From positions 1 through 38,664 of the forward strand of contig JAISQV010000206.1 of assembly GCA_031273985.1 (NCBI GenBank): a DNA stretch of 38,664 nt, read 5' to 3'. Shown in pieces: positions 100 through 32,744 of this stretch; positions within the stretch are counted from its first letter, which is position 1; the number at the start of each line of letters is the position of its first letter. The stretch comes from Spirochaetaceae bacterium (GTDB lineage: Bacteria > Spirochaetota > Spirochaetia > Treponematales > Breznakiellaceae). The notes below the pieces were generated by a model. It was not told the origin of the DNA, made no database searches, and was given only the letters and a program-made list of their open reading frames with translations. The translations under genes and the position numbers were made by a program.

Positions 100-119
100 G
101 CCCCCGCATTGGGGGTAGC
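100..119. repeat. Putative attL core (GCCCCCGCATTGGGGGTAGC)
   Basis: 20/20 identical to 32725-32744. Contains an internal CCCCC-GCATT-GGGGG inverted repeat. An AT-rich arm and xis/int follow. Confidence 0.7.
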
Positions 120-228
120 GCTGACCGGTAAATGTTACTAAAAATACCCGCCTGAATAAATAATGGCCGAAAAGAAAAGATTTGTCAATAATTTTCTACC
201 AAAAAGCAAAAAAAAGTAAAAGAGTTTA

Positions 229-250
229 GTGACCCAAAATACTGACCCTG
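229..250 (+). promoter_or_regulatory. Putative arm-type recombinase/Xis binding motif (left arm), GTGACCCAAAATACTGACCCTG
   Basis: 18/22 identical, in the same orientation, to 32658-32679. Consists of two (G/C)TGACCC half-sites 14 bp apart. Confidence 0.5.
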
Positions 251-368
251 AAATTCACGCAGACGGCCTGCTCTTTTCATATTTTTCGTTGTTATCCACC
301 GTGCCGGGCACGGGGTGAAGCGCATTGCGAAGAAGCGAAGCGTGAAGAAATAATCCGGTAAAAACTTC

Positions 369-397
369 TTGACAAGCACTAGTAACAAGTGCATTAT
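369..397 (+). promoter_or_regulatory. Sigma70-like promoter with embedded operator-like inverted repeat
   Basis: TTGACA (369-374), 17-bp spacer, CATTAT (392-397). The inverted repeat GCACT-N7-AGTGC (376-392) fills the spacer. A GAGG RBS sits at 403-406 before ATG 414. Confidence 0.6.
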
Positions 398-413
398 AGG
401 GAAGAGGTAAATA

Positions 414-665
414 ATGGCAACAAGCAGTGCGGAGCGGCAACGGGCGTTTAAGCAGCGGATGTATGACGCAGGATACAAACAGACGATAGTGTGGGCGCTC
501 CGGGAGCCGGAGAAGAAGGGGCCGCGGATGGACAAGGGGGCGTTTCTCCGGAAGCTGGAACGGCTGACCGGGCAGTATACGGCAGAGGAGCAAGGGAGGC
601 TGTACGGCGAACTGATACGGTACATAGAGACGAAGAAGGGGGTAACGAAAGAAAAGAAAGCGTAG
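414..665 (+). CDS. Small basic protein, putative element regulator (DUF3018/RepB-regulator-like pattern)
   Basis: ATG with RBS and promoter upstream. The N-terminus SAERQRAFKQRMYDAGYKQTIVW matches, from memory, the Arg-rich helix plus G-x5-W pattern of small plasmid regulators/antitoxins. Not searched. Confidence 0.6.
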   Translation: MATSSAERQRAFKQRMYDAGYKQTIVWALREPEKKGPRMDKGAFLRKLERLTGQYTAEEQGRLYGELIRYIETKKGVTKEKKA

Positions 666-707
666 TTCACGGTATGGGAGGGGAAGAAAACAAACTGGAG
701 GAAAGCC

Positions 708-893
708 ATGACAATCAACTCTCAACCGCTGACGGCGGAAGCATTATCGCAGGTACTGGGAATCAGCGAGTTTACGATCAGGAAGCTGGCCCGTGAAGGG
801 CAGCTGCCGTGTATTTATGTGAAGCGGCAGCCGCGGTTCGAACTGGAAGCGCTTGTAGCGTACTTCAAGCGGCTCGAGGCGGCGGCGGCATGA
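708..893 (+). CDS. Excisionase-like helix-turn-helix protein (MerR/Xis-type HTH)
   Basis: 61 aa. LSQVLGISEFTIRKLAREGQLP is a typical excisionase-family HTH. Its stop overlaps the integrase ATG (ATGA at 890-893). Confidence 0.8.
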   Translation: MTINSQPLTAEALSQVLGISEFTIRKLAREGQLPCIYVKRQPRFELEALVAYFKRLEAAAA

Positions 894-2255: not shown

Positions 2256-3074
2256 TTACCGGCGCCTCAGGGGAGGGGTTTGAGGCCGGAGAACAATTTC
2301 TTGGCTATCACGTGGCCTTCCCGTGCGTCTTGCCGCAAATATTTGATCTCTTGCGGCGTTAAGCGACGGGGTTTTGGCGAGGGCGTAAGCTTCGGGCTGG
2401 GTAAGACAGTTGAAGTTTCCTTCATACAAGTCAATCTCCTTCATAAAAGAGGATAACGGTTGTTCACCATGAGTGTCAAGCAATTTAACGCGCATGGCGG
2501 AGGATAGGGCAATCTCGCCTCCGTGGCCGCCGAGGGCCATAGCCGCGGTCTGAACGGCTTTTCCGCCGTTTTTTTCGATGTGCCGGCGCAGTTCGCTGAA
2601 TGAACCTCCGAAGGCGAAGACGTCATCGACCAGTATGTAGTTCCGGCGGTTCTGAACTTCGCCGTCAAATTCCGGGCGGAAGGCGAAACGGTGCCAGGGA
2701 TCGGAACCGGTACGGAATACCTGATTTGCTTGAATGATAGTAGTGTCAACCTGGAGGCCTGTTTTTTTTGAGATATATTCGGCAAGCATTTCGGGGATTC
2801 GGTTTTTACCGCCGGCCTCTACGGCACGGACCGGAACGACAATCGCGTCCGGGAAGGAAGTTTTGAGCGATTTCAACTGTTTGATATTATCCGGGGTATC
2901 CAGGAGGGATTTGACCAAGCGCGCCGCGGCCTGCCGGTCTTCATGGTTTTTGGCGGCGTCGTAATCGGGGTGGTTGAAGAGGAGCTTCCATGGTTTGGCG
3001 CATACGTTTTGGAGGTCTACGAAGCGCATGACCTTCGGGAAATTTTCATCCCAGCCCGGAGCTAGCGCGATCAT
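2256..3074 (-). CDS. Phosphoribosyltransferase-fold (PRTase/ComF-like) protein
   Basis: PRPP-binding signature NYILVDDVFAFGGSFSEL. Its ATG overlaps the topo III stop (3071-3074). Confidence 0.75.
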   Translation of the reverse strand: MIALAPGWDENFPKVMRFVDLQNVCAKPWKLLFNHPDYDAAKNHEDRQAAARLVKSLLDTPDNIKQLKSLKTSFPDAIVVPVRAVEAGGKNRIPEMLAEYISKKTGLQVDTTIIQANQVFRTGSDPWHRFAFRPEFDGEVQNRRNYILVDDVFAFGGSFSELRRHIEKNGGKAVQTAAMALGGHGGEIALSSAMRVKLLDTHGEQPLSSFMKEIDLYEGNFNCLTQPEAYALAKTPSLNAARDQIFAARRTGRPRDSQEIVLRPQTPPLRRR

Positions 3075-5113
3075 ATCTTTTTATCGTCGAAACGCATTTC
3101 AACTTTACCATTGGCCAGCTCGAAGGCGGCGCGGAATTCCTTACCGGCCTTGCTTTTGCACTTTTTAATTTTGGTTTTTTTACCCGCGAGCAGGGCCTGA
3201 ACATCGGTGAGGGAAATAGCCGCCTGGCATATTTCTTTCCAGATGGCGAATTGGCAGCCCTCTTTATAATTGGCGCAATAATAATTGCGCTTGCCGTCAT
3301 AAATGTCCCCGCCGCAGCGTGGGCATTTACCGAGGCTTTTTTTCCCCCAGGTTTCAACGGAGGTGTGTTCGACGGCGCTGCGCACAAAGGTTTTGATGTC
3401 GCGTAAAAACTGGGCGGTATTTTCGTGAAGGGATTGTTCCCACCTGGTAGTTTCGGGGATAGAAATAAAATTGGCGAGGAATTCATTTTTTTTGATATTT
3501 TCGATGAGGAATATGCCGTCGTCGGAGATGAGGATATTCTTGCCTTTTTGGAGGAGGTAACCGCGGCCTGTGAGTTTTTTGAGGATGGAGCCGCGGGTAG
3601 CCGGGGTACCGAGGCCCGCGAGATGTTTTCCATCATCGCCACGGGGATTTTCCATGAGGGCGAGGAGGGATGCGTAGGTGTAGTGTTTTTTGGGCTCGGT
3701 GAATTTCTCCGCCATGGTAATTGACGAAACAGGGTATACGCCCTGTTCCTCAAGGCCGGCGTAATTTTCTTCCTCGTCCTCGTCATCGTCTTTTTCCCGG
3801 CGCTGTTTCCAGCCGGCCTGGAGCACTTCGGCGCCGTTTCCGGCAAAGGGGAACCCTGAAATATCGACGGCGATTTTAATGGCGTTGTAAACAAAATCGG
3901 GCATGAGGATGGTGAAAAACTGATTGAGGACGAGGTTGAAGACATTAGCTTCCTCCGGGGAGGCGCCGTCCGGGAGGGGCGCCAGGGGGATGAGCGCGTG
4001 ATGGTCTTCGAGCTCTGCGGAATTGAAGATGCGTTTATTACCGGCGCTGATGAGGGCGGGGTCTGTCCCTTCCGACATTTCAGGATAAACGCCTTTCAGG
4101 TTTTCATAGATACCGCTGACCAGGCCGGCGTTCTCATCGCCCATGACACGGGAAGGCGTACGGGGATAGGAGAGGCACTTGTGCTTTTCGTAGAGGGCCT
4201 GTGCGATAGTCAGGGTCTGTTCCGGGGTATAAGAAAATTTTTTACTGGCCTCCTTTTGCAAAGCGGTGAGGTTGAATAGCTGCGGCGGACGGAGGGTTTT
4301 TTTCTCTTTTTTGAGTTCCGTGATTCTGCCTGATTTCAAGGAGTCTTTTTTTTCCTTGATTTCCGCAAGCAGCGGGGACTGATCCGGGAACCTGGAGGGG
4401 AATTCCTCGTTGGACTGATTGAGGAGCTTCACGGAAAAGGGGAAGCCCGCGTCGAGGAGGGCGGCGGCTTCGGCATATTTCTCCGGAGTAAATCCTTTGA
4501 CGGCCTGTTCCCGGTCATGGACGGCGGCGAGGACGGCGGTCTGTACGCGACCGAAGTGGAGGAGTTTTCCTGACTTGACGGACAAGAGTCGGGTAAGGTT
4601 CATGCCGGTAAGCCAGTCTGCTTCCTGCCGTGCGTAGCCCTGTTCTTTGTAGGGATCGTAATCAGACAAAGGCCGGGCGTTTTTAATGCCGGCAAGAATG
4701 ACATCGGGGGTAAGGGCAGCGGAAACCCAGAAGCGGCGGGCGGAGTCGTAGCCCCTGAATCCGACATAGCCGAGGATCTCCGCGCCGATAAGTTCCCCTT
4801 CGCGTTCCGCGTCGGTGGCCAGAAGGAGCACGTCATCCTTACGGGCGTCGAAACATTTTTTAACCAGGGCGAGCTGGGATTCGGCGCCCTGGACGGGTTT
4901 AAATTTAACCTGTTCGGGAATGACGGGAAGCGTCTGGAGGGACCATTTTTTGAGAGCGGGGTCGTAGTCTTCGGGGGCGAAATTTTCGAGGAGGTGGCCG
5001 AGGGCGTTGACGATGCAGTATTCGTCATTTTCGAAGAAGCCCGCTTTTTTGGGGACGCCGAGGGCGGCGGCGAAGGCTGAAGAAACAGAAGGTTTTTCGG
5101 TAAGGATGAGCAT
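3071..5113 (-). CDS. topB: DNA topoisomerase III (type IA), conjugative-element type
   Basis: TOPRIM motif LATDAEREGE, active-site Tyr context CLSYPRT, and C-terminal zinc ribbon CPRCGG...YYCANYKEGCQF. An AAGGAG RBS precedes the ATG. Confidence 0.93.
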   Translation of the reverse strand: MLILTEKPSVSSAFAAALGVPKKAGFFENDEYCIVNALGHLLENFAPEDYDPALKKWSLQTLPVIPEQVKFKPVQGAESQLALVKKCFDARKDDVLLLATDAEREGELIGAEILGYVGFRGYDSARRFWVSAALTPDVILAGIKNARPLSDYDPYKEQGYARQEADWLTGMNLTRLLSVKSGKLLHFGRVQTAVLAAVHDREQAVKGFTPEKYAEAAALLDAGFPFSVKLLNQSNEEFPSRFPDQSPLLAEIKEKKDSLKSGRITELKKEKKTLRPPQLFNLTALQKEASKKFSYTPEQTLTIAQALYEKHKCLSYPRTPSRVMGDENAGLVSGIYENLKGVYPEMSEGTDPALISAGNKRIFNSAELEDHHALIPLAPLPDGASPEEANVFNLVLNQFFTILMPDFVYNAIKIAVDISGFPFAGNGAEVLQAGWKQRREKDDDEDEEENYAGLEEQGVYPVSSITMAEKFTEPKKHYTYASLLALMENPRGDDGKHLAGLGTPATRGSILKKLTGRGYLLQKGKNILISDDGIFLIENIKKNEFLANFISIPETTRWEQSLHENTAQFLRDIKTFVRSAVEHTSVETWGKKSLGKCPRCGGDIYDGKRNYYCANYKEGCQFAIWKEICQAAISLTDVQALLAGKKTKIKKCKSKAGKEFRAAFELANGKVEMRFDDKKI

Positions 5114-5578: not shown

Positions 5579-6792
5579 GGGAGGCCGTATTGTTCCCTGA
5601 GTTTCGCCACGGCTTTAAGTTTTTCCGGGAAGCTGAGGGAGCTGTCGTCGAGGATTCGCCGCGACTCACGGGAGAAGGCCGATTTCCGGTCCTGTGGGAG
5701 GAGCCAGAACTTTTTATGCCTTTCGGCGTCTTCCGCGGAGGCGAAACGGTCGAGGCCGCAGGAAGGGCAGCGGCCGGCGCCGTCGGGGAGGGAATCGCCG
5801 CAAACGGGGCAAAAGGCGGGGTTTTGCGGGGGCGGCGGGGCCCTGATTTCGGCGCTACGGCGGAAGAGCACGGCGGCCTGTTCGGTAAAGAAAAGGGTGT
5901 AGAAGAGGCCTGCGAGGCTGCGTGGATTTTTTTTGAGGCAGAAGGCGCAGAGCCAGGAGAGGAAAGCGTCAGGCAGGCCTGAAGAGGCGAGATAGGCCGA
6001 GGCTTTCGGGTAGAAGGCAGGGTCGAAGAAGAGTTCCTGGCTGACGGCAAGGAGGCGGGCTTTGAGGTCTCCGGCGTTGGGTGCGGTATCTTCCGCTGCT
6101 GCCGGGGGCGCCTGGGAGCAGCCCTCCCCGGAAGCGGGGTGCGGGGAAGCAGCAGAAGCTTTATTAATATTGTAATAATAGCTTTTAATATTCTCCCTGA
6201 AAAAATTTTCACCACCTTGCGAAGAATTTTTCACCACCTCCTGAAGATTTTTTCCATAGGTAGTGAAATTATTTTCACCACGTGGTGAAGAAATTTTCAC
6301 CGCCCCCCCCTCCGGGACGAGCGCTGGTTCCGGCTCTGCGGGGGCGTGAGGTTCCGGCGCCGCGGTTTCCCCCTCCGGCGGGGCGGGCGCCGGCACGGCT
6401 TCGGCGCCGGTTTCCGGACTCCCTGAGGCGGGGCTCTCCGGCAGGCCGGGATCGGGTTCCAGGGGCGGCGGCTCATAGGGGCTTGGCAGTCCGGGCTCCT
6501 TAAGCTTAATGTTACGGCTTTTGATCTCTTTTTTGCCCGGGACGTAGGTGAACGTGACGTCAATGACACCCGCGTTCTTGAGGGTATTGATCCAGTTGAT
6601 AACGCTTCGCTCGGTGGTTTTGTAGAGGTTGGCGAAGTAGGCGTTGCCGGCCCAGCAGTGGCCTTTGAGGTTACAGAGGGCGGAAATTTCGGCGTAGAGC
6701 AGCTTGGCGCTGGGCGGGATGGATTTGTTATAGCGGACGGTGGCCGGGATGACGGCCCAGAATGCCGGGGACGGCGGTTTTTCGTTATGCAA
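5575..6792 (-). CDS. HTH-domain replication-initiator-like protein (DnaD / phage O-type N-terminus) with C-terminal zinc ribbon
   Basis: The N-terminus FWAVIPATVRYNKSIPPSAKLLYAEISALCNLKGHCWAGNAYFANLYKTTERSVINWINTLKNAGVI matches the winged-HTH of plasmid/phage initiators. Also has CPVCGDSLPDGAGRCPSCG. TTG start preceded by GGAGG. Confidence 0.75.
   Translation of the reverse strand: MHNEKPPSPAFWAVIPATVRYNKSIPPSAKLLYAEISALCNLKGHCWAGNAYFANLYKTTERSVINWINTLKNAGVIDVTFTYVPGKKEIKSRNIKLKEPGLPSPYEPPPLEPDPGLPESPASGSPETGAEAVPAPAPPEGETAAPEPHAPAEPEPALVPEGGAVKISSPRGENNFTTYGKNLQEVVKNSSQGGENFFRENIKSYYYNINKASAASPHPASGEGCSQAPPAAAEDTAPNAGDLKARLLAVSQELFFDPAFYPKASAYLASSGLPDAFLSWLCAFCLKKNPRSLAGLFYTLFFTEQAAVLFRRSAEIRAPPPPQNPAFCPVCGDSLPDGAGRCPSCGLDRFASAEDAERHKKFWLLPQDRKSAFSRESRRILDDSSLSFPEKLKAVAKLREQYGLP
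6206..6304. repeat. Iteron-like repeats TTTTCACCRC(C) inside the rep-like gene
   Basis: Direct copies at 6206-6216, 6227-6238, 6272-6282 and 6294-6304. Also a 14-bp perfect palindrome TCACCACGTGGTGA (6276-6289) and a degenerate inverted copy at 6259-6268. The segment is a local AT-rich island. Confidence 0.55.
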
Positions 6793-12508: not shown

Positions 12509-12509
12509 G

Positions 12510-14181: not shown

Positions 14182-14192
14182 GGGGTTCCTGC

Positions 14193-15695: not shown

Positions 15696-15697
15696 AG

Positions 15698-17155: not shown

Positions 17156-17209
17156 TTGTTTCCCCTTTAGTAATGTGCAAGCCTGAGCGTTTGGGTCCAT
17201 CTATCCGCG

Positions 17210-17647: not shown

Positions 17648-17658
17648 TTGTTTCTCCT

Positions 17659-18350: not shown

Positions 18351-18416
18351 GCGGCTTTCCTCCTTCCGCGGGCGCATTGTAGCACGGGGGGAAGGGCGGC
18401 GCAAGGCGCCGGCGGG

Positions 18417-18942: not shown

Positions 18943-19000
18943 GAAAAGACACCATGTAAAACTATAGTATAGCGCCAGCCCTGCGTCAATCCGGCGCGCG

Positions 19001-22077: not shown

Positions 22078-22079
22078 GG

Positions 22080-22373: not shown

Positions 22374-22412
22374 AAGACACTCCTTAAAAAAGATGTGCGG
22401 GAAGGCGCGGCG

Positions 22413-23360
22413 TCAGCGGGCCGTTCCGCTTTCCCGTATTTCCTCTACCGTGAGGGCTTCGTCCACGACGGGCCCGAAACCCCTGCGGTAGGAAAGGTGC
22501 ACGACGATGTTGACAGCGTCGGCCAGGTCCGGAAGGGTACCGGCTATTTTCTGGCGGAGGAGGCCCTCGATGCGGGAGAGGGTGGAGGAGGCGCTGTCGG
22601 CATGGATGGTGGTGATGTTGCCGGGGTGGCCGGTGTTCCAGGCTTCGAGGAGTTCCACGGTAACATCGCCGGAACGCAGCTCGCCGAAGATGATGCGTTT
22701 CGGGGTCCAGCGGAGGGCGGTCTGGATGGCGGCGACGGCCTGCTCTTTTCTGATGTAGAGCTGGGTTTTGTTTTTGCCCCGGCACTGGAGTTCCGGGAGA
22801 TCCTCGATGAGGTAGAAGCGGTCGTCCGGCGAAAACTCCCGCATTTTTTCGATACAGGCGTTGGTGAAGGTGGTCTTGCCGGAACCTGTGGAGCCGGAAA
22901 TGACCATATTACTGCGGCGCTCTATATGGGCGACTATCTTGCGGTAGAGCTTTGCTGAAAGCCGCCCCTGCTCGCGGTATTGTTCGAGGGTGAAGACATC
23001 GCCCGCGGGGCGGCGGAAGGTTATTTCCGGGGACTCCACCCAGGGGGGCACGATGGCGGTAGTTCTGATCTTGTAGTCGGGGATGATGCTTTCCAGGGTG
23101 GGCCGCTCCCAGGTATCGATGGGGGTGTCGGAGACATTGGCCAGGCTGTTAATGATGCGCATACGCTCGGCGGGGGAGAGCCTGATTTCGGTGTCGTAAA
23201 GGCCTTTTAGAAAGTCATCGCACTGCACCGCGCCGTCTCCGTAGACATACACGTTGGTAACGGAGGCGGTCTCGAAGAAGGGGATGAGCGGGGCGAGATC
23301 GCCCATGAGGTTTTCCATCTCGCGCTCACGGCGCTCGAGCCCGTCCTCAATCCTGCCCAT
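22413..23360 (-). CDS. trbB: T4SS ATPase TrbB / VirB11
   Basis: Walker A SGSTGSGKTT, plus GELRSGD and GHPGNITTIHA motifs. ATG 23360 with a GGAGAA RBS was preferred to the TTG at 23399. Confidence 0.9.
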   Translation of the reverse strand: MGRIEDGLERREREMENLMGDLAPLIPFFETASVTNVYVYGDGAVQCDDFLKGLYDTEIRLSPAERMRIINSLANVSDTPIDTWERPTLESIIPDYKIRTTAIVPPWVESPEITFRRPAGDVFTLEQYREQGRLSAKLYRKIVAHIERRSNMVISGSTGSGKTTFTNACIEKMREFSPDDRFYLIEDLPELQCRGKNKTQLYIRKEQAVAAIQTALRWTPKRIIFGELRSGDVTVELLEAWNTGHPGNITTIHADSASSTLSRIEGLLRQKIAGTLPDLADAVNIVVHLSYRRGFGPVVDEALTVEEIRESGTAR

Positions 23361-23784
23361 CAGGTTCTCCGGAGAAATAGGTATGCAGGAGCCTTTCAAA
23401 GAAAGGGGGGTCGTTTTTAAGGCTTTCCTGGAAAGCCCTGAAGAAGGTGTCGTGCCGGGCGGAGGCCGATTTGAGGGCGGCGTCTGCCAGGTCCTGGTCT
23501 ATCTCCGCGTTATAGGCGAGCAGGTTGATGTGCATGAGGCGGAGGTAGCGGAAGGTGATGTCCAGCATATCCCCGAGCTCGTCCATTTTTTTCCGCATAT
23601 CGCCGAGGCCCTGGAGTTTGAGGGTTTCGTCCCGGTAATCGGCGTAGATGTACCTGGTTATGGCGTGGCGGATGAGCTCGGATTCGCTTTCGAGGCCCTT
23701 GTCCCTGCAATAGGTTTTGATGTCCGCCAGCATCTGCACGGGAAGGGAGCAGAGCTTTTTCTTCAGTTCCGGGCGTTTAGTCAT
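23347..23784 (-). CDS. Ribbon-helix-helix (CopG-like) protein
   Basis: KKLCSLPVQMLADIKTYCRDKGLESESELIRHAITRYI is an RHH pattern. ATG 23784 overlaps the traG stop. The upstream part of the track ORF was rejected. Confidence 0.7.
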   Translation of the reverse strand: MTKRPELKKKLCSLPVQMLADIKTYCRDKGLESESELIRHAITRYIYADYRDETLKLQGLGDMRKKMDELGDMLDITFRYLRLMHINLLAYNAEIDQDLADAALKSASARHDTFFRAFQESLKNDPPFFERLLHTYFSGEPDGQD

Positions 23785-25882
23785 ACGCGCCGGCCTTGAG
23801 GAAATTAGGGATTTCCCCGTCCTCCGGGAGGTCCTCCGCGTAGTCCCCGGCGGGGCCGTCTTCCGGGCCTGCTCCCTCTTCGGACTCGCCGCTGTAGCCG
23901 CCGTCATCGTAGAGCCCCCGGAGCTTTTCCTCCTGTTCCGCCAGGACCGCGGGGTCTTCGGCCTCGCCTTCCGGCGCGAACCAGCGGGGGCCCGAAAGCT
24001 TCGCTATGGCGGGCCGGGCTGCGCGCAGCGCGCCCTCCCGGTCGGTGAAGGCCGGCGGGAAGAGGCGCGCCTTGAAGACCGGGTCATCGTAGTACACGTT
24101 TTTTTTACCGATATAGGGCGGCTGCCCCTGGCAGATGAGAATGAACTCGTCCAGGGGGAGCTTCATCACCTCGTCGGCGTTGATAAGATTGCGCTCCTGG
24201 TCCTGGGCGCTGAGGCTCGCATTGTTGAAGCCCAGGGCCCCCCTTGCGCCCGAATAACTTATATTGGCCCGGCTTACGGATTCCCTGCCGCAAATCTTGC
24301 TTATGGTCTCGGCGTTATCATATTCCCCGGCGCCGGGGGCGTAGAAAATAGTGTTGCGGCAATGGGCCAGAAAGGAATGGTCTTTTCCGTAGATACTGTT
24401 GAGCTGGTTTATCGATTGGAAGATCAGGAAGTAGTGGATACCGAACCCGTTATGGATGCCCATGTTCATGTGCAGCTCCTCCATTTTGCCGAGCTTGTCG
24501 AACTCGTCGAGGATGAAGAGCAGGGGGATTTTGAATTTACGGTTTGTCGCCTGGGTTTCGCCGGAGGTGAAGCGGCGGGAGAAGAGCAGCACGAACATAC
24601 GGATCAGGGCGCTGATACGCTGGACGTCTGAGTACTGGATGGTGATGTACAGGCTTACGGGCACGGGGCTTTCCACAAATTCATCGATGTAGAATTCCGA
24701 GTTTTGGGTGTTGCGCTTGATTTTGGCGTCGGCGAAGACGGCCAGTGCGTTATTTACGGTGGAAAGCACGGAGCCGCCCTCGTCGCCGGGTCTTTTGCGC
24801 TGCGCGCCGGCGCCCTCCACGACGGACTGATGAATGGCGGGGTCCCCGTGGTCCGCGTTGATCATCAGATCGTAGATGTATTTGGTGTTTCCGGGGTCCG
24901 AGGGGTCCTGGAGTGCAAGGAATTCCCGGCATCCTGCCAGACTCTTGTTGGGCCAGTCGGAGCAGAGGCAGTGCAGGATCAGGGCTGTAAGGAAGTCGCG
25001 GGCCGCCGTGGTGAAGTGCTCGCTGGTGGCGTTGCCGGAGCCGGAGGCCGGCGTGGTGAGGATGTCGGCTTCGAGGTTGGCGTCGCTGAAGGCGTCCTCG
25101 CCCCCGCGGATCTCCATCATGGGGTTGAAGTGGTGCCCGGCGTTACCCACGGGCTCCCAGCGGTAGACCTTGCCGAATTTGGCGCGGAACCCCGAAGTCA
25201 GGTTGAAATTCTCTCCCTTGAAGTCCAGTACGATGACGCTGCCGGGATATGAGAGGAGGGTCGGTATGACGCTGGAGACGCCCTTGCCGCTCCGTGTGGG
25301 CGCGGAAAGGACGGTGTTATAGATGCCGGCCTGGATGATCTTCCGGGAAGGTTTGAGAAGATGCAGCACCACGGAATCCTTTTCCGTGTCGTAGACGGCG
25401 GAAAGCCGCGCCGCGCCGGTCTCTCCGAGGATCATGCCGCCCCGGAGCCCGAGGATGCCGGCCTTTTTCAGGTCCCGCACCGTGGCCCAGCGCGCCGTCC
25501 CGAAAATATTCTGTTTCCGGTTGCGCAGTATGATGAATTCGAGGAACAGGTAGAACACGATGGCGGAGACGGAGGTGTAGCCCGCTATTTTGACGGCCTC
25601 GTACAGGAAGGGATGTATGTCGAGGCGTTTGTAATAGACCAGGCACCAGTAGAAGATCAGGTAGGGCTTATACAGGGGGTAGGAGACGTTCCCGAAGCGG
25701 AGTACGGAGAAGGGAGCCCCCACCCAGCCGGGCTCGTAGTTCACGAGGGCGCAGAATCTCTGCGTACTGGCCCAGAAGCCGGCGATGATGATGAGGAAGG
25801 TTGTCAGTTTGAACAGCAGGCTGAGGAGCTGCTCTCCGGTGGTATCAACGGGCTTGCCCCGCAGGAATTCGTTCTTACTCAT
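23777..25882 (-). CDS. traG: Type IV coupling protein TraG / VirD4
   Basis: N-terminal TM segments, Walker A APTRSGKGVSSVIPTLL, Walker B LLFILDEFDKLG. Confidence 0.92.
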   Translation of the reverse strand: MSKNEFLRGKPVDTTGEQLLSLLFKLTTFLIIIAGFWASTQRFCALVNYEPGWVGAPFSVLRFGNVSYPLYKPYLIFYWCLVYYKRLDIHPFLYEAVKIAGYTSVSAIVFYLFLEFIILRNRKQNIFGTARWATVRDLKKAGILGLRGGMILGETGAARLSAVYDTEKDSVVLHLLKPSRKIIQAGIYNTVLSAPTRSGKGVSSVIPTLLSYPGSVIVLDFKGENFNLTSGFRAKFGKVYRWEPVGNAGHHFNPMMEIRGGEDAFSDANLEADILTTPASGSGNATSEHFTTAARDFLTALILHCLCSDWPNKSLAGCREFLALQDPSDPGNTKYIYDLMINADHGDPAIHQSVVEGAGAQRKRPGDEGGSVLSTVNNALAVFADAKIKRNTQNSEFYIDEFVESPVPVSLYITIQYSDVQRISALIRMFVLLFSRRFTSGETQATNRKFKIPLLFILDEFDKLGKMEELHMNMGIHNGFGIHYFLIFQSINQLNSIYGKDHSFLAHCRNTIFYAPGAGEYDNAETISKICGRESVSRANISYSGARGALGFNNASLSAQDQERNLINADEVMKLPLDEFILICQGQPPYIGKKNVYYDDPVFKARLFPPAFTDREGALRAARPAIAKLSGPRWFAPEGEAEDPAVLAEQEEKLRGLYDDGGYSGESEEGAGPEDGPAGDYAEDLPEDGEIPNFLKAGAYD

Positions 25883-25918: not shown

Positions 25919-26128
25919 TTACCATCCTCCTTTACTGCACGGAAGCAGGGCCTGAACCGTTTCATCAAAAGCCGTATCTTCTTTCGGGGCCCGGTCCGTT
26001 TCCGGCACACAGGCGGAACAGAGATACTTCTCGGCCCAGTAACAGGGAACGCCGGTCTTCTCAATACATTGGTGACAGTCGTCATCGGTACAGCCGCACA
26101 CCCGGCACCGGCGTTTTCCGGCGCTCAC
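25919..26128 (-). CDS. Small cysteine-rich (zinc-binding-like) protein
   Basis: 69 aa. RCRVCGCTDDDCHQCIEKTGVPCYWAEKYLCSAC. 4-nt overlap with the upstream gene. Confidence 0.6.
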   Translation of the reverse strand: MSAGKRRCRVCGCTDDDCHQCIEKTGVPCYWAEKYLCSACVPETDRAPKEDTAFDETVQALLPCSKGGW

Positions 26129-27045
26129 CGGCTCCGCCCCCGCGCCAGCTTTTGCTCCTGTTTCTGTTCCCGGACCGGCTGGGGATTCCGCCGCTGTTCA
26201 TCGCGGGCTTCCCGTATGATGTCCTTACATTCCGCCCCCGCGGCCTGGCAGATTTTTGAGAGCTTGTATGGATCGGTATGTTCCTTGCCTAACCGCTCGT
26301 CGAATGACTGTTTATAAACGGATTCCTGCAATTTGCCTGAAAATTCCTTCGCCTGTTCCGGGCTTACCTTGAACTTGCCCCCCATGGAGACCGCGGCCAG
26401 GTACTGGCCCAGGTATTTTTCCGGCTCGGTGGAGGTGCAGGCGATCTCCGGCCCCGGCCCCTTCTGTCCGGGTTCATAGGGCTTGTAATTATTCCCGTAT
26501 TGCTGCTTGAGGAATTCCGTCCTCTCCTGCTGCTGTTCCTGGACATGCTTTGCAGCCCAGTCCTTGAGGGCCCAGGGCTTGGTGGTCTGGGCCGCATTGT
26601 AGAGAAGCGCGTTCTTCTGTTCCCATTCCCCGCTTCCTTCATTTCTGACTTGGAAACTGACGGTTACCGGCTTCTCATCCTTGCGGATAAAAATCTGGTC
26701 TCCCGTTTCCGCCCTGGCTTTGTCGATCTGATTACGGGTAACGTACTCAGGCGTGGGGAACCCGTTTCGTTTCTGGAAGTCCTTGAGGTACAGGAGGCTT
26801 ACGCCGTGGTAGCGGGTATCGTTGGCGATATTGACCGCGGGGGCCGTATCGGCGTAGCCGTCCTTTCCGGAGAGGCAGGGCAGCGTTCCGTTCTCCAGGG
26901 ATTCTAAGATTACCTTTCTTTGATGGAGCGCGTTGAGGAACGCAACCTCCTCCGGGGTTTTGGGCTCCCCCCGGCCTTCGATGATTTCTTCCGACACATC
27001 CGCGGAAGCGGCAGTTTCGGCATTGCCTTCTAATTCGTCTGACAT
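26125..27045 (-). CDS. ArdC-N-like ssDNA-binding (antirestriction-type) domain protein
   Basis: AAGGAG RBS before ATG 27045. NIANDTRYHGVSLLYLKDFQKRNGFPTPEYVTRNQIDKARAETGDQIFIRKDEKPVTVSF resembles the ArdC N-terminal domain pattern (N..t...Y.G.N...L......g.....w.T..Q.....G..v.kge). No metalloprotease motif was seen. Confidence 0.65.
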   Translation of the reverse strand: MSDELEGNAETAASADVSEEIIEGRGEPKTPEEVAFLNALHQRKVILESLENGTLPCLSGKDGYADTAPAVNIANDTRYHGVSLLYLKDFQKRNGFPTPEYVTRNQIDKARAETGDQIFIRKDEKPVTVSFQVRNEGSGEWEQKNALLYNAAQTTKPWALKDWAAKHVQEQQQERTEFLKQQYGNNYKPYEPGQKGPGPEIACTSTEPEKYLGQYLAAVSMGGKFKVSPEQAKEFSGKLQESVYKQSFDERLGKEHTDPYKLSKICQAAGAECKDIIREARDEQRRNPQPVREQKQEQKLARGRSR

Positions 27046-27173
27046 GATTGACTCCTTTGCGTTTATTTTCACCGCCTCAAGAGAAGCGATTAAAAAACCC
27101 TCCAAGGCGTGTTATAACCAGCTTTATCTTTTTACTTTTTTTCATACCGTATCGGCATCCTTGCCCGGTATGG

Positions 27174-27848
27174 TCAAAACAGCTCCCCCTGCCGCAACGC
27201 GGGCGCGGGGAGCTCCGGGGGCTTCCCGTCATGGCCCGCCTGCCGGGCGAGGGATACTTCCCCGGCGGCCTCGAAGCCCGCGGCGAAGGCCCCGGTTTTT
27301 ACCTGTCTCCGGGGCGGATTCTCTTCTTCAAGCGGGACGGCGCTTCTCACGTAGTCCGCCGCTTCCATGATTTTAGAATTCCGCCGGTCCTTCCAGGCGC
27401 AGGCCCCGCCCAGGGCGTGTATCCTGTCGTGAAGCCCGGCGGCGATACCGGCCCGGAAGTCCTGCCGGTAAAAGTATTTTGCGTTCTTGCGGAGGGCCCT
27501 CCTGGAAATGCGCTCTGTGGTTTTGACAAGGTACTGGTACATCTCGGAGGCCATGAACACGTCCAGCGGTTCCCCGGTAAAGACAACCGCCCCCTCGGTT
27601 CTATCGTGGTAGTAAAAACACCCGTAAAGCCACGCAACGGCGTATGCGAGGCGAAGGCGCCAGTTCACGTAATACTTTGTCGCCCTTACGCTGACGCTCT
27701 CGAATTTGAGGCCCTCCCCGTCTATGCCGTATTCCTCCATCAGGTAGTTGGCTTTCTCTATCGCCGCCGCGGCCTCGTTCTCGTTGTCGCTTCTGGACAG
27801 TTCGAGGAGTTTCCGCACCCGGCCCTTGATGGTTTCAGGATCGTTCAT
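27174..27848 (-). CDS. DUF2786-like protein
   Basis: The N-terminus IKGRVRKLLELSRSDNENEAAAAIEKANYLMEEYGI is the characteristic DUF2786 helix pair. Confidence 0.7.
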   Translation of the reverse strand: MNDPETIKGRVRKLLELSRSDNENEAAAAIEKANYLMEEYGIDGEGLKFESVSVRATKYYVNWRLRLAYAVAWLYGCFYYHDRTEGAVVFTGEPLDVFMASEMYQYLVKTTERISRRALRKNAKYFYRQDFRAGIAAGLHDRIHALGGACAWKDRRNSKIMEAADYVRSAVPLEEENPPRRQVKTGAFAAGFEAAGEVSLARQAGHDGKPPELPAPALRQGELF

Positions 27849-28020: not shown

Positions 28021-29280
28021 TCACAGCTTAATCCCTTCCCGCCCGGCTCCCGAGGCCAGTTCCCGCGCAAGGGGGCCGGTGAAACCGCCTTCCGCTATCT
28101 CCCTCCGCACCTCGCTCCCGGAGCGTTTTACCATTACCGGCGTCAGGCGGCCCTGCTGGTTCTCACGAGCCTTGAGCGAAATAACGTCCCCATCGCGCAG
28201 CCACTGCCGCTCAGACCCCTCGCCGGCGGAGGGCCTCCGGAGAAGGGGCACGAAGTGCGCTTTCCCGTTGAGCCCTTCCAGCACTACCGCGTGGTTGTCG
28301 CTCGCGTCCCCGTCGATGCGGTACACCTTCGTTATTTTCCCGGTGATCTCCCCCTGCTCCCCCGTGTAGAGGCCCAGGCGGAGGGGGGAGGTGTACCGCA
28401 GCGCCCCGCGGGCCTTCAGAAAGGCGTTGTACCTTCCGTTGGCCTTGAGGCTTTCTTCCCACCGGGGGGAGAGTTTGTAGCCGCCGTCACTGTACCCGCA
28501 GAGTTTCAGCCTTTGCAGGTTCTCCAGCCGCTTCAGCAGGCGCCCCCGCTCCCGCTCGTCCCGCGCCCCTTCAAGGTTCACCCGGTAGGTGCCCCCGCAC
28601 AACTCTTTGAGCCGCCCGTCCAGCCTCGTGTAACGCGGCGCGGCCAGCTCCCGTTCCCGCTCGGTTTCCAGGTCTCCCCGGCTCCTCGCCCCGAGCTGGG
28701 CCGTGCACAGGTCCCGCGCGTGTTCCCGCATAAAGGTGCGCACCAGGTCTCTGGGGAATTCGACCTCCTTCCCGTTCCGGTCCCTGCCGTTGATCAGGAG
28801 GTGGGCGTGGGGATGCGCCGTGTTGTAGTGATTGGCGGCCTGCCAGTAAAGACGCAGCCCGGTCTCCATCTCAAGACGCTTCACGAAACGCTCCGTCAGC
28901 GCTTTCAGGTCCGCCTTGTCAGACTGGGGGCTCAGGAATATCCTGAAGTTCTTTCCGGCCATGTTTTGCCGGTACTCCTCCAGGTCTGTCCCGTAGAGCC
29001 GGGCCCGGCTTCCGTCCCGGTCAGTCCCCTCCCGGATCAGGTATTTCTCCAACTGGACCCGGTGCGCCTCTATGCTCCGGGAATACTGCATCTTGACCGT
29101 GCACTTCTGGCGGGCGTCAACGCGCCGAAACCTTCCCCCCCGGAACCCGCCGCCCGACCCCCGCGCCTTCCGGGGGCGCAGGAGCCGGGCCAGGGCCTGC
29201 GCCGAGTCCTGCCCCTCCCGCCTCCGCCTGAAGCCGGGTTTGATCCGGTATTCCCGGCTTTCAAATAAAAAATGACGCAC
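28021..29280 (-). CDS. Relaxase (VirD2-like / MOB-P-type relaxase-mobilisation nuclease)
   Basis: Histidine-triad motif NHYNTAHPHAHLLINGRD. The N-terminal FRIKPG...VKMQYSR...AHRVQLEKYLIREG pattern is typical of DUF3363-type relaxases. GTG start. Confidence 0.8.
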   Translation of the reverse strand: MRHFLFESREYRIKPGFRRRREGQDSAQALARLLRPRKARGSGGGFRGGRFRRVDARQKCTVKMQYSRSIEAHRVQLEKYLIREGTDRDGSRARLYGTDLEEYRQNMAGKNFRIFLSPQSDKADLKALTERFVKRLEMETGLRLYWQAANHYNTAHPHAHLLINGRDRNGKEVEFPRDLVRTFMREHARDLCTAQLGARSRGDLETERERELAAPRYTRLDGRLKELCGGTYRVNLEGARDERERGRLLKRLENLQRLKLCGYSDGGYKLSPRWEESLKANGRYNAFLKARGALRYTSPLRLGLYTGEQGEITGKITKVYRIDGDASDNHAVVLEGLNGKAHFVPLLRRPSAGEGSERQWLRDGDVISLKARENQQGRLTPVMVKRSGSEVRREIAEGGFTGPLARELASGAGREGIKL

Positions 29281-29355
29281 GGTTCACACCCCTGCAAGCT
29301 CTGAAAATAGAGCTTTATTCGCCTTCAGGCCGCGCAAGGGATAGCAGCGGAAATC

Positions 29356-29382
29356 TTTTGTTGCCCCATACGGGCAACAAAA
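29356..29382. promoter_or_regulatory. 11-bp-stem inverted repeat in the ihf-relaxase spacer
   Basis: TTTTGTTGCCC-CATAC-GGGCAACAAAA. A second inverted repeat, TCCCCGG-TGAAG-CCGGGGA, follows at about 29402-29420. Confidence 0.4.
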
Positions 29383-29470
29383 ATTGGAGCGGATAGCCCG
29401 GTCCCCGGTGAAGCCGGGGATGCGCCCGTAGTCCGAATCGATGGTATGCGTAAGCTCTGATCGCATAGCT

Positions 29471-29957: not shown

Positions 29958-30013
29958 TTATGACCCCCGCATCCGTTTGCTACAGGTCCTGGACCCGCAT
30001 AGCAAATGCCCCT

Positions 30014-30148
30014 GTTATTCGCTCGATTCGCAGAGCTTTGCCCGGTTATTCGCTTTACTAGCAGAGCATTGGCCCTGTTTTGGGCGGTTATTCGCTCTGT
30101 TCGCAGAGCTTTGCCCTTTTTATTCGCTTTACTAGCAGAGCAACGGGG
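30014..30148. repeat. Four ~30-bp direct repeats TTATTCGCT-N6/7-GCAGAGC (centromere/parS-like array)
   Basis: TTATTCGCT occurs at 30015, 30046, 30088 and 30120. Two alternating subtypes (..CGATTCGCAGAGCTTTGCCC and ..TTACTAGCAGAGCA). A related near-palindrome TGCTTTACTAGCAAAGCA (30333-30350) abuts the parB stop. Confidence 0.6.
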
Positions 30149-30162
30149 CGGAGAAGTACAGG

Positions 30163-30308
30163 CTAAGTACCGGGTGCACCCGTGGTATATACCGCTAAGT
30201 GCCGGGCAAACCCGTGAGTTAGCCGCTGCCGGTATATACCCAAAACCGGCTGGATATACCGCCAAGTGCCGGGTAAACCCGTGAGTTACAGCGGCCGGAT
30301 ATACACCC
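30163..30308. repeat. Second repeat family with GGTATATACC palindromes and GGC(T/C)GGATATAC border-like motifs (candidate oriT)
   Basis: Units at 30163-30193, 30194-30240 and 30261-30308 share (C)TAAGT(A/G)CCGGG-N4-CCCGTG. GGTATATACC occurs at 30184-30193 and 30231-30240. GGATATAC occurs at 30252-30259 and 30297-30304. Confidence 0.6.
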
Positions 30309-30350
30309 TTTATCTTGCCTCCATGGGCCATTTGCTTTACTAGCAAAGCA

Positions 30351-31178
30351 TTACACCTCATCAATCAGCGCTTTTCGCGTATTCCCGGGCAAAAGCGCGT
30401 AAAAAACCGCTTTTTCGCCCTTTTTCAGGAAATGATCGACCAATAACCGAGCCGGAGCCGCTTCGCTCATCGCAATCAAGTGAATAACCGCGCTCCGTAA
30501 AAATTTATTCCTGATGCCGGTCTGGTAATCAGCGGATTCCCGGCTTTCCTTTTCAGAAGCAGCAGCAGCCTCCGCCCCGGTGCCGGCGGAGGCTTTTCCC
30601 CTCCGGGGTTTGGTGATCTGCTTGTACACCGCCCCGATTGTCTTCTCCCCGCTCTGTACCGCTTTCAGCTCCTCTTCCGGCGCTTCCAGCAGAATCTTCC
30701 GTGCCTGGTATATCGTCGAGGGGCTCACCCCGATCCGCTCCGCAAGCTGCTCCGCGGCGCGCCCCGTCCCGTCCTTCTTCTTCCTCCCGTGAATCATCTG
30801 CGCCGCCTGCAGTATCTCCGAAGAAGTAAGATTGCGCCGTAATACCTGCCGCTCGAAGGTATAGAGCATCGCCTCTTCCATGTCGGCAAACTCCATCTCC
30901 GCCGCGGGTATCTCATCCAGCCCGAGCTCCTTCGCCGCGGCAAGCCGCGTGTGCCCGTCTACCAGAATATTCCGCCCTTTCCATATTACGACGGGCTGGC
31001 TCTTGTCGTAGCCGAATTTCTCGATCTTCTCTTTGATCTCAAGAAAGGTCTTGTTTTCGATCTTGAAAATCCGGGCTATCTCAGGCTCTATCACCACGTC
31101 AGCCACCCGCACGGGTTTCGCATAGTAGTTCCGCCCGGCGTTCCAGCCCGCCGTCTCAGGCGTCTCAAGCCGGGCCAT
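30351..31178 (-). CDS. parB: ParB-like nuclease/partition protein
   Basis: ParB N-domain ILVDGHTRLAAAKELGL and HTH GRAAEQLAERIGVSPSTIYQARKIL. ATG 31178 overlaps the parA stop (ATGA). The longer track ORF start was rejected. Confidence 0.85.
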   Translation of the reverse strand: MARLETPETAGWNAGRNYYAKPVRVADVVIEPEIARIFKIENKTFLEIKEKIEKFGYDKSQPVVIWKGRNILVDGHTRLAAAKELGLDEIPAAEMEFADMEEAMLYTFERQVLRRNLTSSEILQAAQMIHGRKKKDGTGRAAEQLAERIGVSPSTIYQARKILLEAPEEELKAVQSGEKTIGAVYKQITKPRRGKASAGTGAEAAAASEKESRESADYQTGIRNKFLRSAVIHLIAMSEAAPARLLVDHFLKKGEKAVFYALLPGNTRKALIDEV

Positions 31179-31993
31179 CAGAAGACCCCCGGCGCTTCCA
31201 GGGCGCCTTCGAAAAAGCAGCCGGCCAGCTCCGCTATCGCATGGTACAGGGCCGGGTTGTATACCGCCCCCGGCGCATCTTTCATGCAGGTAAGACGTTT
31301 GTGGTAATCCACCACCAGGTGTATCTGCGCCGTCCAGGGCAGCCATGTCTCCACCGGCGTCAGGGGAAACCCTCCCTTCCGGTACAAATCGATAAAATCA
31401 CTCTGCCGCCCGGAACGGGCCTCCTCGTAGCGCCGGTTGTAGCCGTTGATCAGGACGTACCAGCTTTTCAGGTCTTCCACATCCCTCGGCAGCACCTCGC
31501 TCATGAACATCGCCGCGTTGTAACTGAATAAATCCTTCAGTACCGGCGTTATGATGTAGTCCGCCGCGTGAAACGTGTTGAGCACAATGTTGTCGTAGGT
31601 CGGGTGGCAGTCGATGATCAGAATGTCGTACTTCCCGTAGAGGCCCGGAACCAGGCGCTTGAGCCGTTTCTCGCTCAGGGTCCTCATGTCGGCAAGGTAG
31701 GGCGTGGACGCTATCAGGTCCACCCCCGGCGTGTCGGTCGGCACGGCGAAGGAGCTCAGATCGTTGCCCTCATCGCTCAGCGCCGCCGCCAGATTCAGCT
31801 TCCGGGTCCGTTCCATCATCTCTTTGTTCAGAAAGTAAAAAGAGAGGCTGTTGTTCAGGTCGCTGTCGGCAAGCACTACCCGCTTGCCCGCGGCCGCGCA
31901 ATACTTGGCCAGCAGGATGGCTATGTTCGTTTTTCCCACCCCGCCCTTGATGAATCCCAACGACACTACCGTCGTCTTCGCTTCCTTTTCCAT
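31178..31993 (-). CDS. parA: ParA/Soj-family partition ATPase
   Basis: Deviant Walker A FIKGGVGKTN. GGAGGA RBS before ATG 31993. Confidence 0.9.
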   Translation of the reverse strand: MEKEAKTTVVSLGFIKGGVGKTNIAILLAKYCAAAGKRVVLADSDLNNSLSFYFLNKEMMERTRKLNLAAALSDEGNDLSSFAVPTDTPGVDLIASTPYLADMRTLSEKRLKRLVPGLYGKYDILIIDCHPTYDNIVLNTFHAADYIITPVLKDLFSYNAAMFMSEVLPRDVEDLKSWYVLINGYNRRYEEARSGRQSDFIDLYRKGGFPLTPVETWLPWTAQIHLVVDYHKRLTCMKDAPGAVYNPALYHAIAELAGCFFEGALEAPGVF

Positions 31994-32048
31994 TTGGCTT
32001 TCCTCCCACAAATGGCTTGTTTTCGGGAGAGCGGCCCTCTCCCGCCTC

Positions 32049-32354
32049 TTAGCGCTTGCTCACGAGCCTTCGCCGCGGCAGGCAGGCCTTTTCCCCGGCA
32101 AAACGCCGCTCGTTGTACCGCCTCACCCCGGCCAGATACTCCTCGTAGTCCCGCTGGTACGCCAGGGACTCATAGCCGGAGCGGTCTACCGGGCGCCGCT
32201 TCGCGTCTTCCAGCAGTTCCGTGTAGAACCGCCATTTCTCATCGTCACCGGCGCCGGAGAGCTTCTCGTCCAGATAGCGCTCCAACCGTTCCCGGGCCAT
32301 GGCCGCTGCCGTCTTCACGGGGGGCTCCCCCCGGTTTGCAATGTGTTCGTTCAT
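32049..32354 (-). CDS. Hypothetical small protein (first gene of the parAB-side operon)
   Basis: GGAGGAAAG RBS before ATG 32354 (MNEHIANRGEPP...). Helical, charged composition. No motif recognised. Confidence 0.5.
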   Translation of the reverse strand: MNEHIANRGEPPVKTAAAMARERLERYLDEKLSGAGDDEKWRFYTELLEDAKRRPVDRSGYESLAYQRDYEEYLAGVRRYNERRFAGEKACLPRRRLVSKR

Positions 32355-32657
32355 TGGGCTTTCCTCCGTAGGTTTGCCGGGGCAAGGCCCGGCCATAGAC
32401 GCTAAAGGGATCGAACCTTTCCAGAGGGGCCGGTGGAGGAAAGCCACACGTGTGGTATGCCCCCGGCGCGCTGTGTCCTAGGCGGGCATTGCTGCACGCC
32501 GGGGAGGACATACCGACACCAAACCCCTCTAGCACTCCAGTGCTAGCGCCTGAATACTGGACTTTACAGTCTTTCCCGCCGCCGGGCCGGAACACCGTGC
32601 AAAGGGGCCGGTTACTTTTCCGGCGCCAGAGGCAGAACGGGTATGTTTGGTGGTTTG

Positions 32658-32679
32658 GTGACCCAGGTTACTGACCCAG
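32658..32679 (+). promoter_or_regulatory. Putative arm-type recombinase/Xis binding motif (right arm), GTGACCCAGGTTACTGACCCAG
   Basis: 18/22 identical to 229-250 with the same half-site spacing. Lies 45 bp inside the right direct repeat. Confidence 0.5.
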
Positions 32680-32724
32680 GCTCACCCTAAGTGCTTGTCT
32701 GGTAACGACTTAGCGGTTAGCGTC

Positions 32725-32744
32725 GCCCCCGCATTGGGGGTAGC
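32725..32744. repeat. Putative attR core (GCCCCCGCATTGGGGGTAGC)
   Basis: 20/20 identical to 100-119. Confidence 0.7.

Follow-up and report, generated by a model that had tools for sequence, protein, structure and literature searches.

The element and its ends

The stretch analysed here, called the window, is the entire contig JAISQV010000206.1 of a Spirochaetaceae bacterium (assembly GCA_031273985.1) with a length of 38,664 bp. A block of integration, conjugation and partition genes lies between two copies of a 20-bp sequence, GCCCCCGCATTGGGGGTAGC. To the left of the first copy, the window has 99 bp only. To the right of the second copy follow a nicotinate phosphoribosyltransferase gene (pncB) and further host genes. 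The 20-mer matched exactly at 100-119 and 32725-32744, and no other site in the window matched with up to three mismatches. The chance expectation is 0.02 matches, and none of 100 shuffles had two or more. A repeat search of the window detected no other long direct repeats bracketing the conjugation block. The outermost features are listed below; contigs used for comparison carry handles of the form L001.

1-84, + strand: left flank outside the element, with hairpins at 8-29 and 35-71 preceding the hairpin unit (sequence reading)
85-98, + strand: module A (GGGGCGTTGCGGGG), whose 3' half pairs with CCCCCGC of the 20-mer as hairpin H1; present only beside the left copy
100-119, + strand: left copy of the 20-bp repeat, attL core (exact match)
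32725-32744, + strand: right copy of the 20-bp repeat, attR core (exact match), without module A upstream
32744-32822, + strand: remainder of the unit, with the variable hairpin H2 (32744-32797) and module C, hairpin H3 (GCAGGGGGCTTGGCCCCCTC, 32799-32818)
32893-34329, + strand: pncB, the first gene outside the element

Positions 100-32744 very likely represent a chromosomal integrative conjugative element (ICE) of a termite-gut Treponema, integrated by its own tyrosine integrase into a hairpin unit. The first-pass annotation had proposed an ICE between perfect repeats at these positions, with an AT-rich stretch, an excisionase-like gene and an integrase gene just inside the left copy, conjugation and partition genes in the interior and metabolic genes to the right. 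These assignments were recovered, and the ICE reading gained support from gene content, the end architecture of the family and homology boundaries. The kind of element is ordinary, an ICE of an already known type. The unusual part is the target, an unnamed hairpin-rich intergenic sequence.

Homology limits the right end from both sides. In blastn, the window is similar to its closest relative, L010, as far as 32681, which leaves 43 bp to the right repeat. Similarity to the host genes of L003 and L004 starts at 32886. The right repeat is located inside the 205-bp gap between the two. Together with the end architecture of related elements, these limits place the repeats where the ends of the family are expected.

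A hairpin unit as the probable integration site

The 20-mer is module B of a larger unit. For a census, the exact 20-mer was searched in genomes and metagenomes and a gapped pattern in viral contigs. The exact sequence had one match in 185,579 species genomes (L001, a Fibrimonadaceae metagenome-assembled genome, MAG), one in the metagenome collection (L002) and one in IMG/VR (L027). With single matches per collection, none of the sampled material has it as a high-copy repeat. In L001 and L002, the match runs leftward through GGGGCGTTGCGGGG, as at the left copy of the window; window positions 84-120 and L001 4847-4883 are identical over 37 bases. The module of GGGGCGTTGCGGGG followed by CCCCCGC...GGGGGTAG is also present in L003 and inside the related ICE L006. 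The gapped pattern revealed 15 further instances of the unit in viral contigs with 40-67% GC, including a Microviridae-sized one.

In the layout common to the units, GGGGCGTT precedes hairpin H1, which comprises GCGGGGG, a loop of 1-22 nt and CCCCCGC. A spacer of 3-6 nt is followed by GGGG(G) and (T/G)AGC, then by the variable H2 and by H3, GGGGGGA..TCCCCCC, often with a T-rich sequence after it. Units were located in intergenic positions at L001 4848-4881, L002 3514-3626, L003 38-132 and L006 6568-6605 and in L012-L025; no contig had more than two of them (L015 and L024 are from the same contig). Intact contiguous units of module A, module B, hairpin and module C are present in L001, L002, L003 and 13 or more viral contigs. 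Much as in the left flank of the window, an upstream hairpin, GTTTGC..GCAAAC or AATTGC..GCAATT, precedes the units in L003, L013, L016 and L017. RNAalifold recovered H1 and H3 with little covariation, in a set whose search pattern had fixed module A and the CCCCCGC of H1. Genes beside the L001 unit encode sorting domains of type IX secretion (T9SS), which fits a Fibrobacterota origin. The occurrences in Treponema and in this Fibrobacterota MAG place the unit in at least two phyla.

In the window, the unit is split. Modules A and B are present at 85-118 and modules B and C at 32726-32818; the right copy lacks module A, and the left copy lacks H2 and H3. The unit head at 85-119 consists of module A, H1, the spacer, GGGGG and TAGC. 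The window H3 is identical to L002 3607-3626 in 19 of 20 positions. When 1-119 is connected directly to 32745 and the sequence after it, one whole unit is restored, which serves as a virtual empty site. An nhmmer profile of 12 other units was covered from 1 to 83 of its 89 positions by the joined flanks, from 1 to 51 by attL and from 18 to 83 by attR. The division of one unit between both ends argues for an insertion rather than a coincidence. By this comparison, the target is a GC-rich intergenic three-hairpin unit and not a gene; attL keeps its head and attR its tail.

The first-pass annotation had named a dispersed genomic repeat at many unrelated loci as the finding that would speak against its boundaries. 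The exact 20-mer is very rare, yet it belongs to a dispersed family of hairpin units. A dispersed repeat in the sense intended there was not what emerged: the unit family is dispersed, yet one unit is divided between the two ends, which favours insertion.

Two other kinds of site were considered and rejected. ARAGORN detected no tRNA or tmRNA gene as a target, and Rfam 15 gave no credible match at the window ends or at the intact units (L001, L002/L003 and the L017 unit). A role of the viral-contig units as phage attachment sites is unsupported, with only two distant integrase matches located 8-10 kb from units. A literature search for the unit motif yielded nothing relevant.

The related ICE L006 has a 370-bp array of G-run/C-run hairpins at 6280-6650 that includes one unit head. 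Hairpin units therefore also travel on ICEs. The exact 20-mer in L027 (9819-9838), a GC-rich IMG/VR contig, has no module A. It is located between open reading frames (ORFs) without family match on one side and a helix-turn-helix (HTH) gene and a UDP-galactopyranose mutase gene on the other. It could be a chance occurrence, a lone hairpin or the junction of another element.

The unit may be a repetitive extragenic palindromic (REP)-like repeat, a small RNA gene or a terminator cluster. An unnamed conserved unit common to bacteria, phages and ICEs merits study in its own right. The exact core is unoccupied in L001 and L002. A tentative idea, possible though rather doubtful, is that the unit is a functional small RNA or DNA signal which spreads horizontally and offers the ICE a portable landing pad across phyla. 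If true, the unit would be to this ICE what tRNA genes are to other integrative elements.

Conserved end architecture and arm-type motifs

Inside the two cores, the ends of the element have the following features.

120-228, + strand: AT-rich arm from core to arm motif; AAAATACCC (about 141-150) and an A/T tract preceded by TGTCAA (about 183-200) are also present in relatives
229-250, + strand: left arm-type motif GTGACCCAAAATACTGACCCTG, with TGACCC twice as direct half-sites at a distance of 13 bp; L005, L006/L007 and L008/L009 have the motif at the same place
369-400, + strand: promoter-like TTGACA (369-374) and CATTAT (392-397), separated by the palindrome GCACTagtaacaAGTGC (376-392)
414-665, + strand: orf83, a small conserved gene, first of the recombination module; no Pfam match, blastn match to L006
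708-893, + strand: xis-like gene, HTH_17, 61 amino acids (Pfam; same gene in relatives); its stop overlaps the int start (ATGA)
890-2254, + strand: tyrosine integrase gene (int), 454 amino acids, SAM_5-like and catalytic domains (Phage_integrase, E=1e-12) and a conserved N-terminal region of about 130 amino acids
32049-32460, - strand: orf101 (32049-32354) and its leader, conserved in L010 and L011
32571-32657, + strand: conserved right-end block GGCCGGTTACT..CCGGCGCC..GGCAGAACGGGTAT, shared with L010 and L011
32658-32679, + strand: right arm-type motif GTGACCCAGGTTACTGACCCAG; GTGACCCGGATTTGTGACCCAGG in L010 and GTGACCCGGCAAAAATGCCGGGT in L011 at the same place
32689-32715, no strand: 6-bp inverted repeat CTAAGT-N15-ACTTAG between arm motif and core; similar in L010 and L011

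Five related elements (L005, L006/L007, L008/L009, L010 and L011) were compared, with integrases 55-59% and ParA proteins 68-78% identical to those of the window. The left ends came from three integrase homologues on longer contigs, two of them in two assemblies (L005, L006/L007, L008/L009), and the right ends from ParA homologues with 78% and 68% identity (L010, L011). The related elements adjoin mutually unrelated host genes at differing loci, such as gyrA/B, fusA, histidine kinases and a YARHG-domain gene. In literature searches, no account of Trb-type ICEs from termite-gut Treponema was found, and the present set documents a family of them.

The left ends of L005, L006/L007 and L008/L009 carry a gene for about 80 amino acids, the HTH_17 gene and int, with host genes beyond; int and xis are at the element end in every one of them. 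Genes of 78-84 amino acids occupy the position of orf83 in L005-L009. Upstream of this gene, the relatives have the motif GTGACCCAAA, as GTGACCCAAAAAACTGACCC in L006, GTGACCCAAAGAAGTGACCT in L008 and a single half-site in L005. TGTCAA with an A/T tract is located farther upstream, and the promoter-like cTTGACAattACTAGTAA, conserved in L005, L006 and L008, downstream. The right ends of L010 and L011 have the same leader structure, the block GGCCGGTTACT...GGCAGAACGGGTAT, their version of the arm motif and an inverted repeat, followed by unrelated DNA. The GTGACCC motif of the relatives is about 110-135 bp (left) and about 45-65 bp (right) from candidate cores.

In the window, the motif copies are 109 bp inside the left repeat and 45 bp inside the right repeat, in the same orientation and with 18 of 22 identical positions, as had been annotated before. 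The half-sites had been given as 14 bp apart; they are 13 bp apart from start to start (230/243 and 32659/32672), a spacing shared by L006, L008 and L010. The pattern GTGACCCANNNTACTGACCCNG matched on the same strand at 229-250 and 32658-32679 only, with a chance expectation of 0.02 for a pattern that was derived from these two copies. Stronger support is provided by the TGACCC hexamer: it occurs nine times in 38.6 kb, and four of the nine form the two pairs. GTGACCC is found nowhere else in the window. TGACCC pairs are thus present at both ends of the window, and they recur at the same positions in six related ends. A motif kept in the same position amid different host contexts indicates a real protein-binding site. 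By this conservation, the paired (G/C)TGACCC motifs are protein-binding sites of the element family at fixed positions near both ends. Most likely they would serve as arm-type sites for the conserved N-terminal region of Int; Xis or the orf83 protein could bind instead. The earlier suggestion of arm-type sites flanking a core gained support from the conservation across relatives, with Int as the presumed binder.

The integrase gene starts 770 bp inside the left repeat. Int retains R267, K294, R361, H384, Y394 and all further positions that show no variation among 14 family members. Conservation is high in residues of about 45-100, for which a strand-strand-helix is predicted. Pfam detected no arm-binding domain in the N-terminal region, and the predicted structure of the N-terminal 135 amino acids (pLDDT 79) had no significant match among PDB folds (best E=0.95). 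The HTH_17 protein is a predicted excisionase that would direct excision. Int has 816 homologues at E<=1e-20, the best being 64% identical. Nearly all are metagenomic, and the named ones are from Treponema or Spirochaetia MAGs. No close relative was found on any PLSDB plasmid. With so many metagenomic homologues, the family may be a major route of gene flow in the termite-gut community.

Further conserved details were observed at both ends. The palindrome at 376-392, with its ACTAGTAA core, recurs in L005 (about 9490-9510), L006 (about 3110-3125) and L008 (about 268-280). It is the probable operator of an orf83-xis-int operon. At the expected core position, L006 (2914-2926), L008 (81-93) and L011 (reverse complement, about 9505-9513) have CGCATAAC(AGGCG), which suggests a common core or target differing from that of the window. 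The inverted repeats of L010 (reverse complement, about 7810-7830) and L011 (reverse complement, about 9525-9550) are equally placed with unrelated sequence. The one at 32689-32715 has no T-run and is not an obvious terminator. In the leader of orf101 (32355-32460, RNA of the - strand), GGCTTTCCTCC is able to base-pair with GGAGGAAAGCC, the ribosome-binding site of the gene. L010 (about 8080-8240) and L011 (about 9760-9860) have the same arrangement, and this conservation suggests a translational control structure.

Gene content of the interior

Genes were assigned by Pfam and NCBIfam scans of the window proteins.

3071-5113, - strand: topoisomerase III-like gene (Toprim and Topoisom_bac), also in L006 and L008
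5575-6792, - strand: gene for an HTH_36/zinc-ribbon protein, possibly Rep-like (Pfam)
11168-16546, - strand: type IV secretion system (T4SS) genes trbI (11168-12508), trbG (12510-13501), trbF/VirB8 (13498-14181) and trbL/VirB6 (14193-15695), and a 282-amino-acid ORF (15698-16546) assigned to the trbJ position by position only
16735-19008, - strand: cargo of lower GC: lipoprotein-like genes (three paralogues), PLD-like fragment, BrnT toxin gene and its upstream partner
19001-25882, - strand: trbE/VirB4 (19001-21823), trbD/VirB3 (21820-22077), the pilin gene trbC (22080-22373), trbB/VirB11 (22413-23399), orf186 and the coupling protein gene traG/VirD4 (23777-25882)
26125-27105, - strand: ArdC-like gene
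27174-27848, - strand: DUF2786/DUF7168 gene
28021-29280, - strand: relaxase gene (Relaxase and DUF3363, RlxS-like)
29324-29407, + strand: hairpin matching Rfam Flavo-1 with 58.2 bits (gathering score 42), antisense to the relaxase gene and 44 bp upstream of its start
29995-30352, no strand: five ATTCGCTTTACTAGCAGAGC-like repeats directly downstream of parB
30351-31993, - strand: parA (31178-31993) and a parB-like gene from 30351 to about 31180, listed as an ORF up to 31346

Relaxase, coupling protein and T4SS components were all found, with trbG/VirB9 carrying a one-nucleotide deletion and trbJ assigned by position. The frameshift in trbG, already annotated before, is confirmed by a 316-amino-acid homologue, whose alignment uses frame -1 as far as DWVYEV and continues in frame -3 at RPLRASD. 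The break is consistent with the loss of one nucleotide from a Tyr codon near 13166-13172, and the site is not a homopolymer run. The relaxase reached 133 bits against RlxS (NCBIfam NF041267), below the curated cut-off of 850, and is a distant relative only. Its nearest annotated relatives, 36-37% identical, are encoded on Treponema plasmids.

To our knowledge, the Flavo-1 family has been described only from Bacteroidetes. At gathering score, it was not found in the relaxase regions of L008, L010 and L011. The hairpin at 29324-29407 may really be a DNA hairpin of the type of an origin of transfer (oriT), which would make it a candidate oriT region. The repeats at 29995-30352 are a possible centromere-like site. 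A second repeat pair of 44 nt is located at 30178-30288, also downstream of the parB-like gene.

The linker region of the HTH_36 protein gene has five tandem 22-bp repeats (TGAAnAAnTTTTCACCACC...) at 6198-6307, which resemble the iterons of a replication origin located within a rep-like gene. The ORF is real: the L006 homologue aligns across these repeats. A protein of 1053 amino acids without assigned function is encoded between the HTH_36 gene and trbI. The cargo is located between trbE and the gene in the trbJ position. Its lipoprotein-like paralogues (16735-18078) are small and have the signal peptide MKK.LFLSALLC...; the PLD-like fragment is located at 18075-18404 and the BrnT toxin gene at 18622-19008. 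A search of the cargo for defence systems detected a weak DrmC-like fragment only.

Alternative explanations

Several observations weigh against an integrated ICE with ends at the two repeats. With a flank of 99 bp, the DNA to the left is recognised as host DNA solely by the comparison of hairpin units. The 20-mer lies within a dispersed repeat family, and the related ICE L006 has a unit internally; two independent copies are conceivable. Exact look-ups of the window PncB and Int found no identical protein on record and hence no contigs of the same species with or without the element. A same-species empty site was not retrieved, and the virtual empty site comes from the comparison with intact units. 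The DNA upstream of pncB in L003 (PncB 80% identical) and L004 (79%) is unrelated, with a gene for a cyclic nucleotide monophosphate (cNMP)-binding protein and a tRNA or a methyltransferase gene, and did not provide a direct empty site. No relative had both ends on one contig among the integrase- and ParA-bearing contigs, which have flanks of up to 10 kb. Finally, nhmmer assigned 19.3 bits to the joined flanks, 20.0 to attL and 8.3 to attR. Profile coverage supports the split; the score does not discriminate, owing to the length of the H2 insert and to the correction for composition.

It is improbable that the 20-mers arose independently of each other, as members of a dispersed REP-like hairpin family, with the true attachment sites elsewhere, for example beyond the left contig end. 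As module B, the 20-mer does belong to a repeat family of many unrelated loci, phage contigs and a related ICE, the left flank is short, and the contig may have broken at a repeat. The right copy, however, has neither the module A nor the upstream hairpin that accompany module B in the intact units, L027 being the exception. The left copy has no H2/H3 tail, and together the two make exactly one unit. The distances to the GTGACCC motifs match those of candidate junctions in relatives, homology to relatives and host genes brackets the right copy within 205 bp, and 38.6 kb contain no further 20-mer. An assembly artefact is very improbable. A circular plasmid or excised element linearised with a terminal overlap, or a chimera of plasmid and chromosome at a shared repeat, could be imagined for a whole metagenomic contig with its left end close to the left repeat and with plasmid-like traits such as ParA/ParB-like genes and a possible Rep with iterons. 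The repeats, however, are internal (starting at 100 and 32725) and not at contig ends, which excludes a k-mer overlap. The copies belong to complementary halves of one unit, and a chimera would need a plasmid with the same half-unit. Moreover, the relatives adjoin chromosomal genes as well and have int/xis at the end in all cases.

An integrated ICE with these ends might also be a decayed and immobile remnant, with the repeats as true former attachment sites and with excision and transfer lost. Decay is suggested by the trbG frameshift outside a homopolymer run and the PLD-like gene fragment in the cargo. The cores, however, are identical in 20 of 20 positions, Int keeps every family-invariant residue, xis and orf83 are intact, and the other T4SS genes, the coupling protein gene and the relaxase gene are of full length. 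A single lesion with the rest intact points to one recent event and not to general decay, and a remnant is unlikely, though it deserves consideration. The earlier description of the element as complete and possibly excisable holds in its second part: with both attachment sites and int apparently intact, excision is plausible. Completeness has to be qualified by the broken trbG. Self-transfer is probably lost in this copy, which is probably still competent for excision.

Proposed mechanism and comparison with known systems

Integration would start from a circular form, whose attP recombined with the chromosomal site through the tyrosine integrase. Strand exchange within the 20-bp identity segment would leave one copy at each junction. 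The core probably has inverted CCCCC/GGGGG arms flanking GCATT. In the reconstructed attP, GGTTAGCG (32715-32722) faces CGCTGACC (119-126) with 7 of 8 positions complementary, and the dyad extends past the 20-mer. Such an extension is as expected of inverted core-type sites and favours them weakly, since the rebuilt attB is also fairly symmetric (11 of 16). After excision, the RlxS-like relaxase would nick oriT, probably in the intergenic region 29281-29440. Transfer of one strand would follow by way of the coupling protein TraG and the Trb-type T4SS. The ParA/ParB-like proteins with the 29995-30352 repeats and the HTH_36 protein with the 6198-6307 repeats may stabilise or replicate the excised form. 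With ends known to the base pair and a conserved candidate arm motif, concrete substrates for excision and integration tests are available.

ICEs of Proteobacteria with a Trb-type T4SS (mating-pair formation type T, MPF-T) and a VirD2/RlxS-like relaxase include the Tn4371 family and ICEMlSymR7A. The comparison from general knowledge shows the same gene order, trbB-C-D-E-(J)-L-F-G-I, together with TraG and a DUF3363-tailed relaxase. As in these ICEs, ParA is encoded near one end and the tyrosine integrase at the opposite one, and short direct repeats flank the element. Unlike these ICEs, the window has a relaxase that stays far below the RlxS cut-off (133 of 850 bits) and has its nearest annotated relatives on Treponema plasmids, an integrase with a SAM_5-type domain and without close PLSDB relative, and a spirochaete host. 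Its target is a hairpin unit and not a gene end or a short AT-rich site.

Heterobivalent systems of the lambda type include lambda Int/Xis; the integrases of the Bacteroides elements CTnDOT (IntDOT) and NBU1 carry a SAM_5-like domain. The window resembles them in having a tyrosine recombinase extended by an N-terminal region, with a small HTH gene for a predicted excisionase directly upstream. Its arms are AT-rich, and arm motifs that differ from the core are repeated to either side of it. In contrast to these systems, the Int N-terminus matched no solved arm-binding domain, and the identity segment has 20 bp and is itself a hairpin. By analogy, the recombination module may work like the Int/Xis systems of lambda and CTnDOT with arm sites.

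The mobile elements IS1397 and IS621 insert into clusters of REPs and bacterial interspersed mosaic elements (BIMEs) and are insertion sequences of the DDE or DEDD type. The targets resemble the unit as clusters of short GC-rich intergenic palindromes that occur in many genomes and are neither protein nor tRNA genes. The agent differs: here it is the tyrosine integrase of a 32.6-kb ICE. REPs are defined by a high copy number within one genome, with tens to hundreds of copies, and are associated with a RAYT transposase; the likeness of the unit to REP/BIME, clustered short GC-rich intergenic palindromes, was judged on single contigs.

Host genes

To the right of the element, pncB is followed by a PRK-family kinase gene and a class I fumarase gene. 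The best relatives of the encoded proteins have 70-80% identical amino acids and are from termite-gut Treponema, including T. primitia. The order pncB-PRK-fumarase is kept in L003, and L003 and L004 share the pncB-PRK(-fumarase) synteny. An ORF of 192 amino acids with lower GC and without family match (36456-37034, - strand) lies between the PRK-family gene and the fumarase gene of the window; in L003, these two genes adjoin each other.

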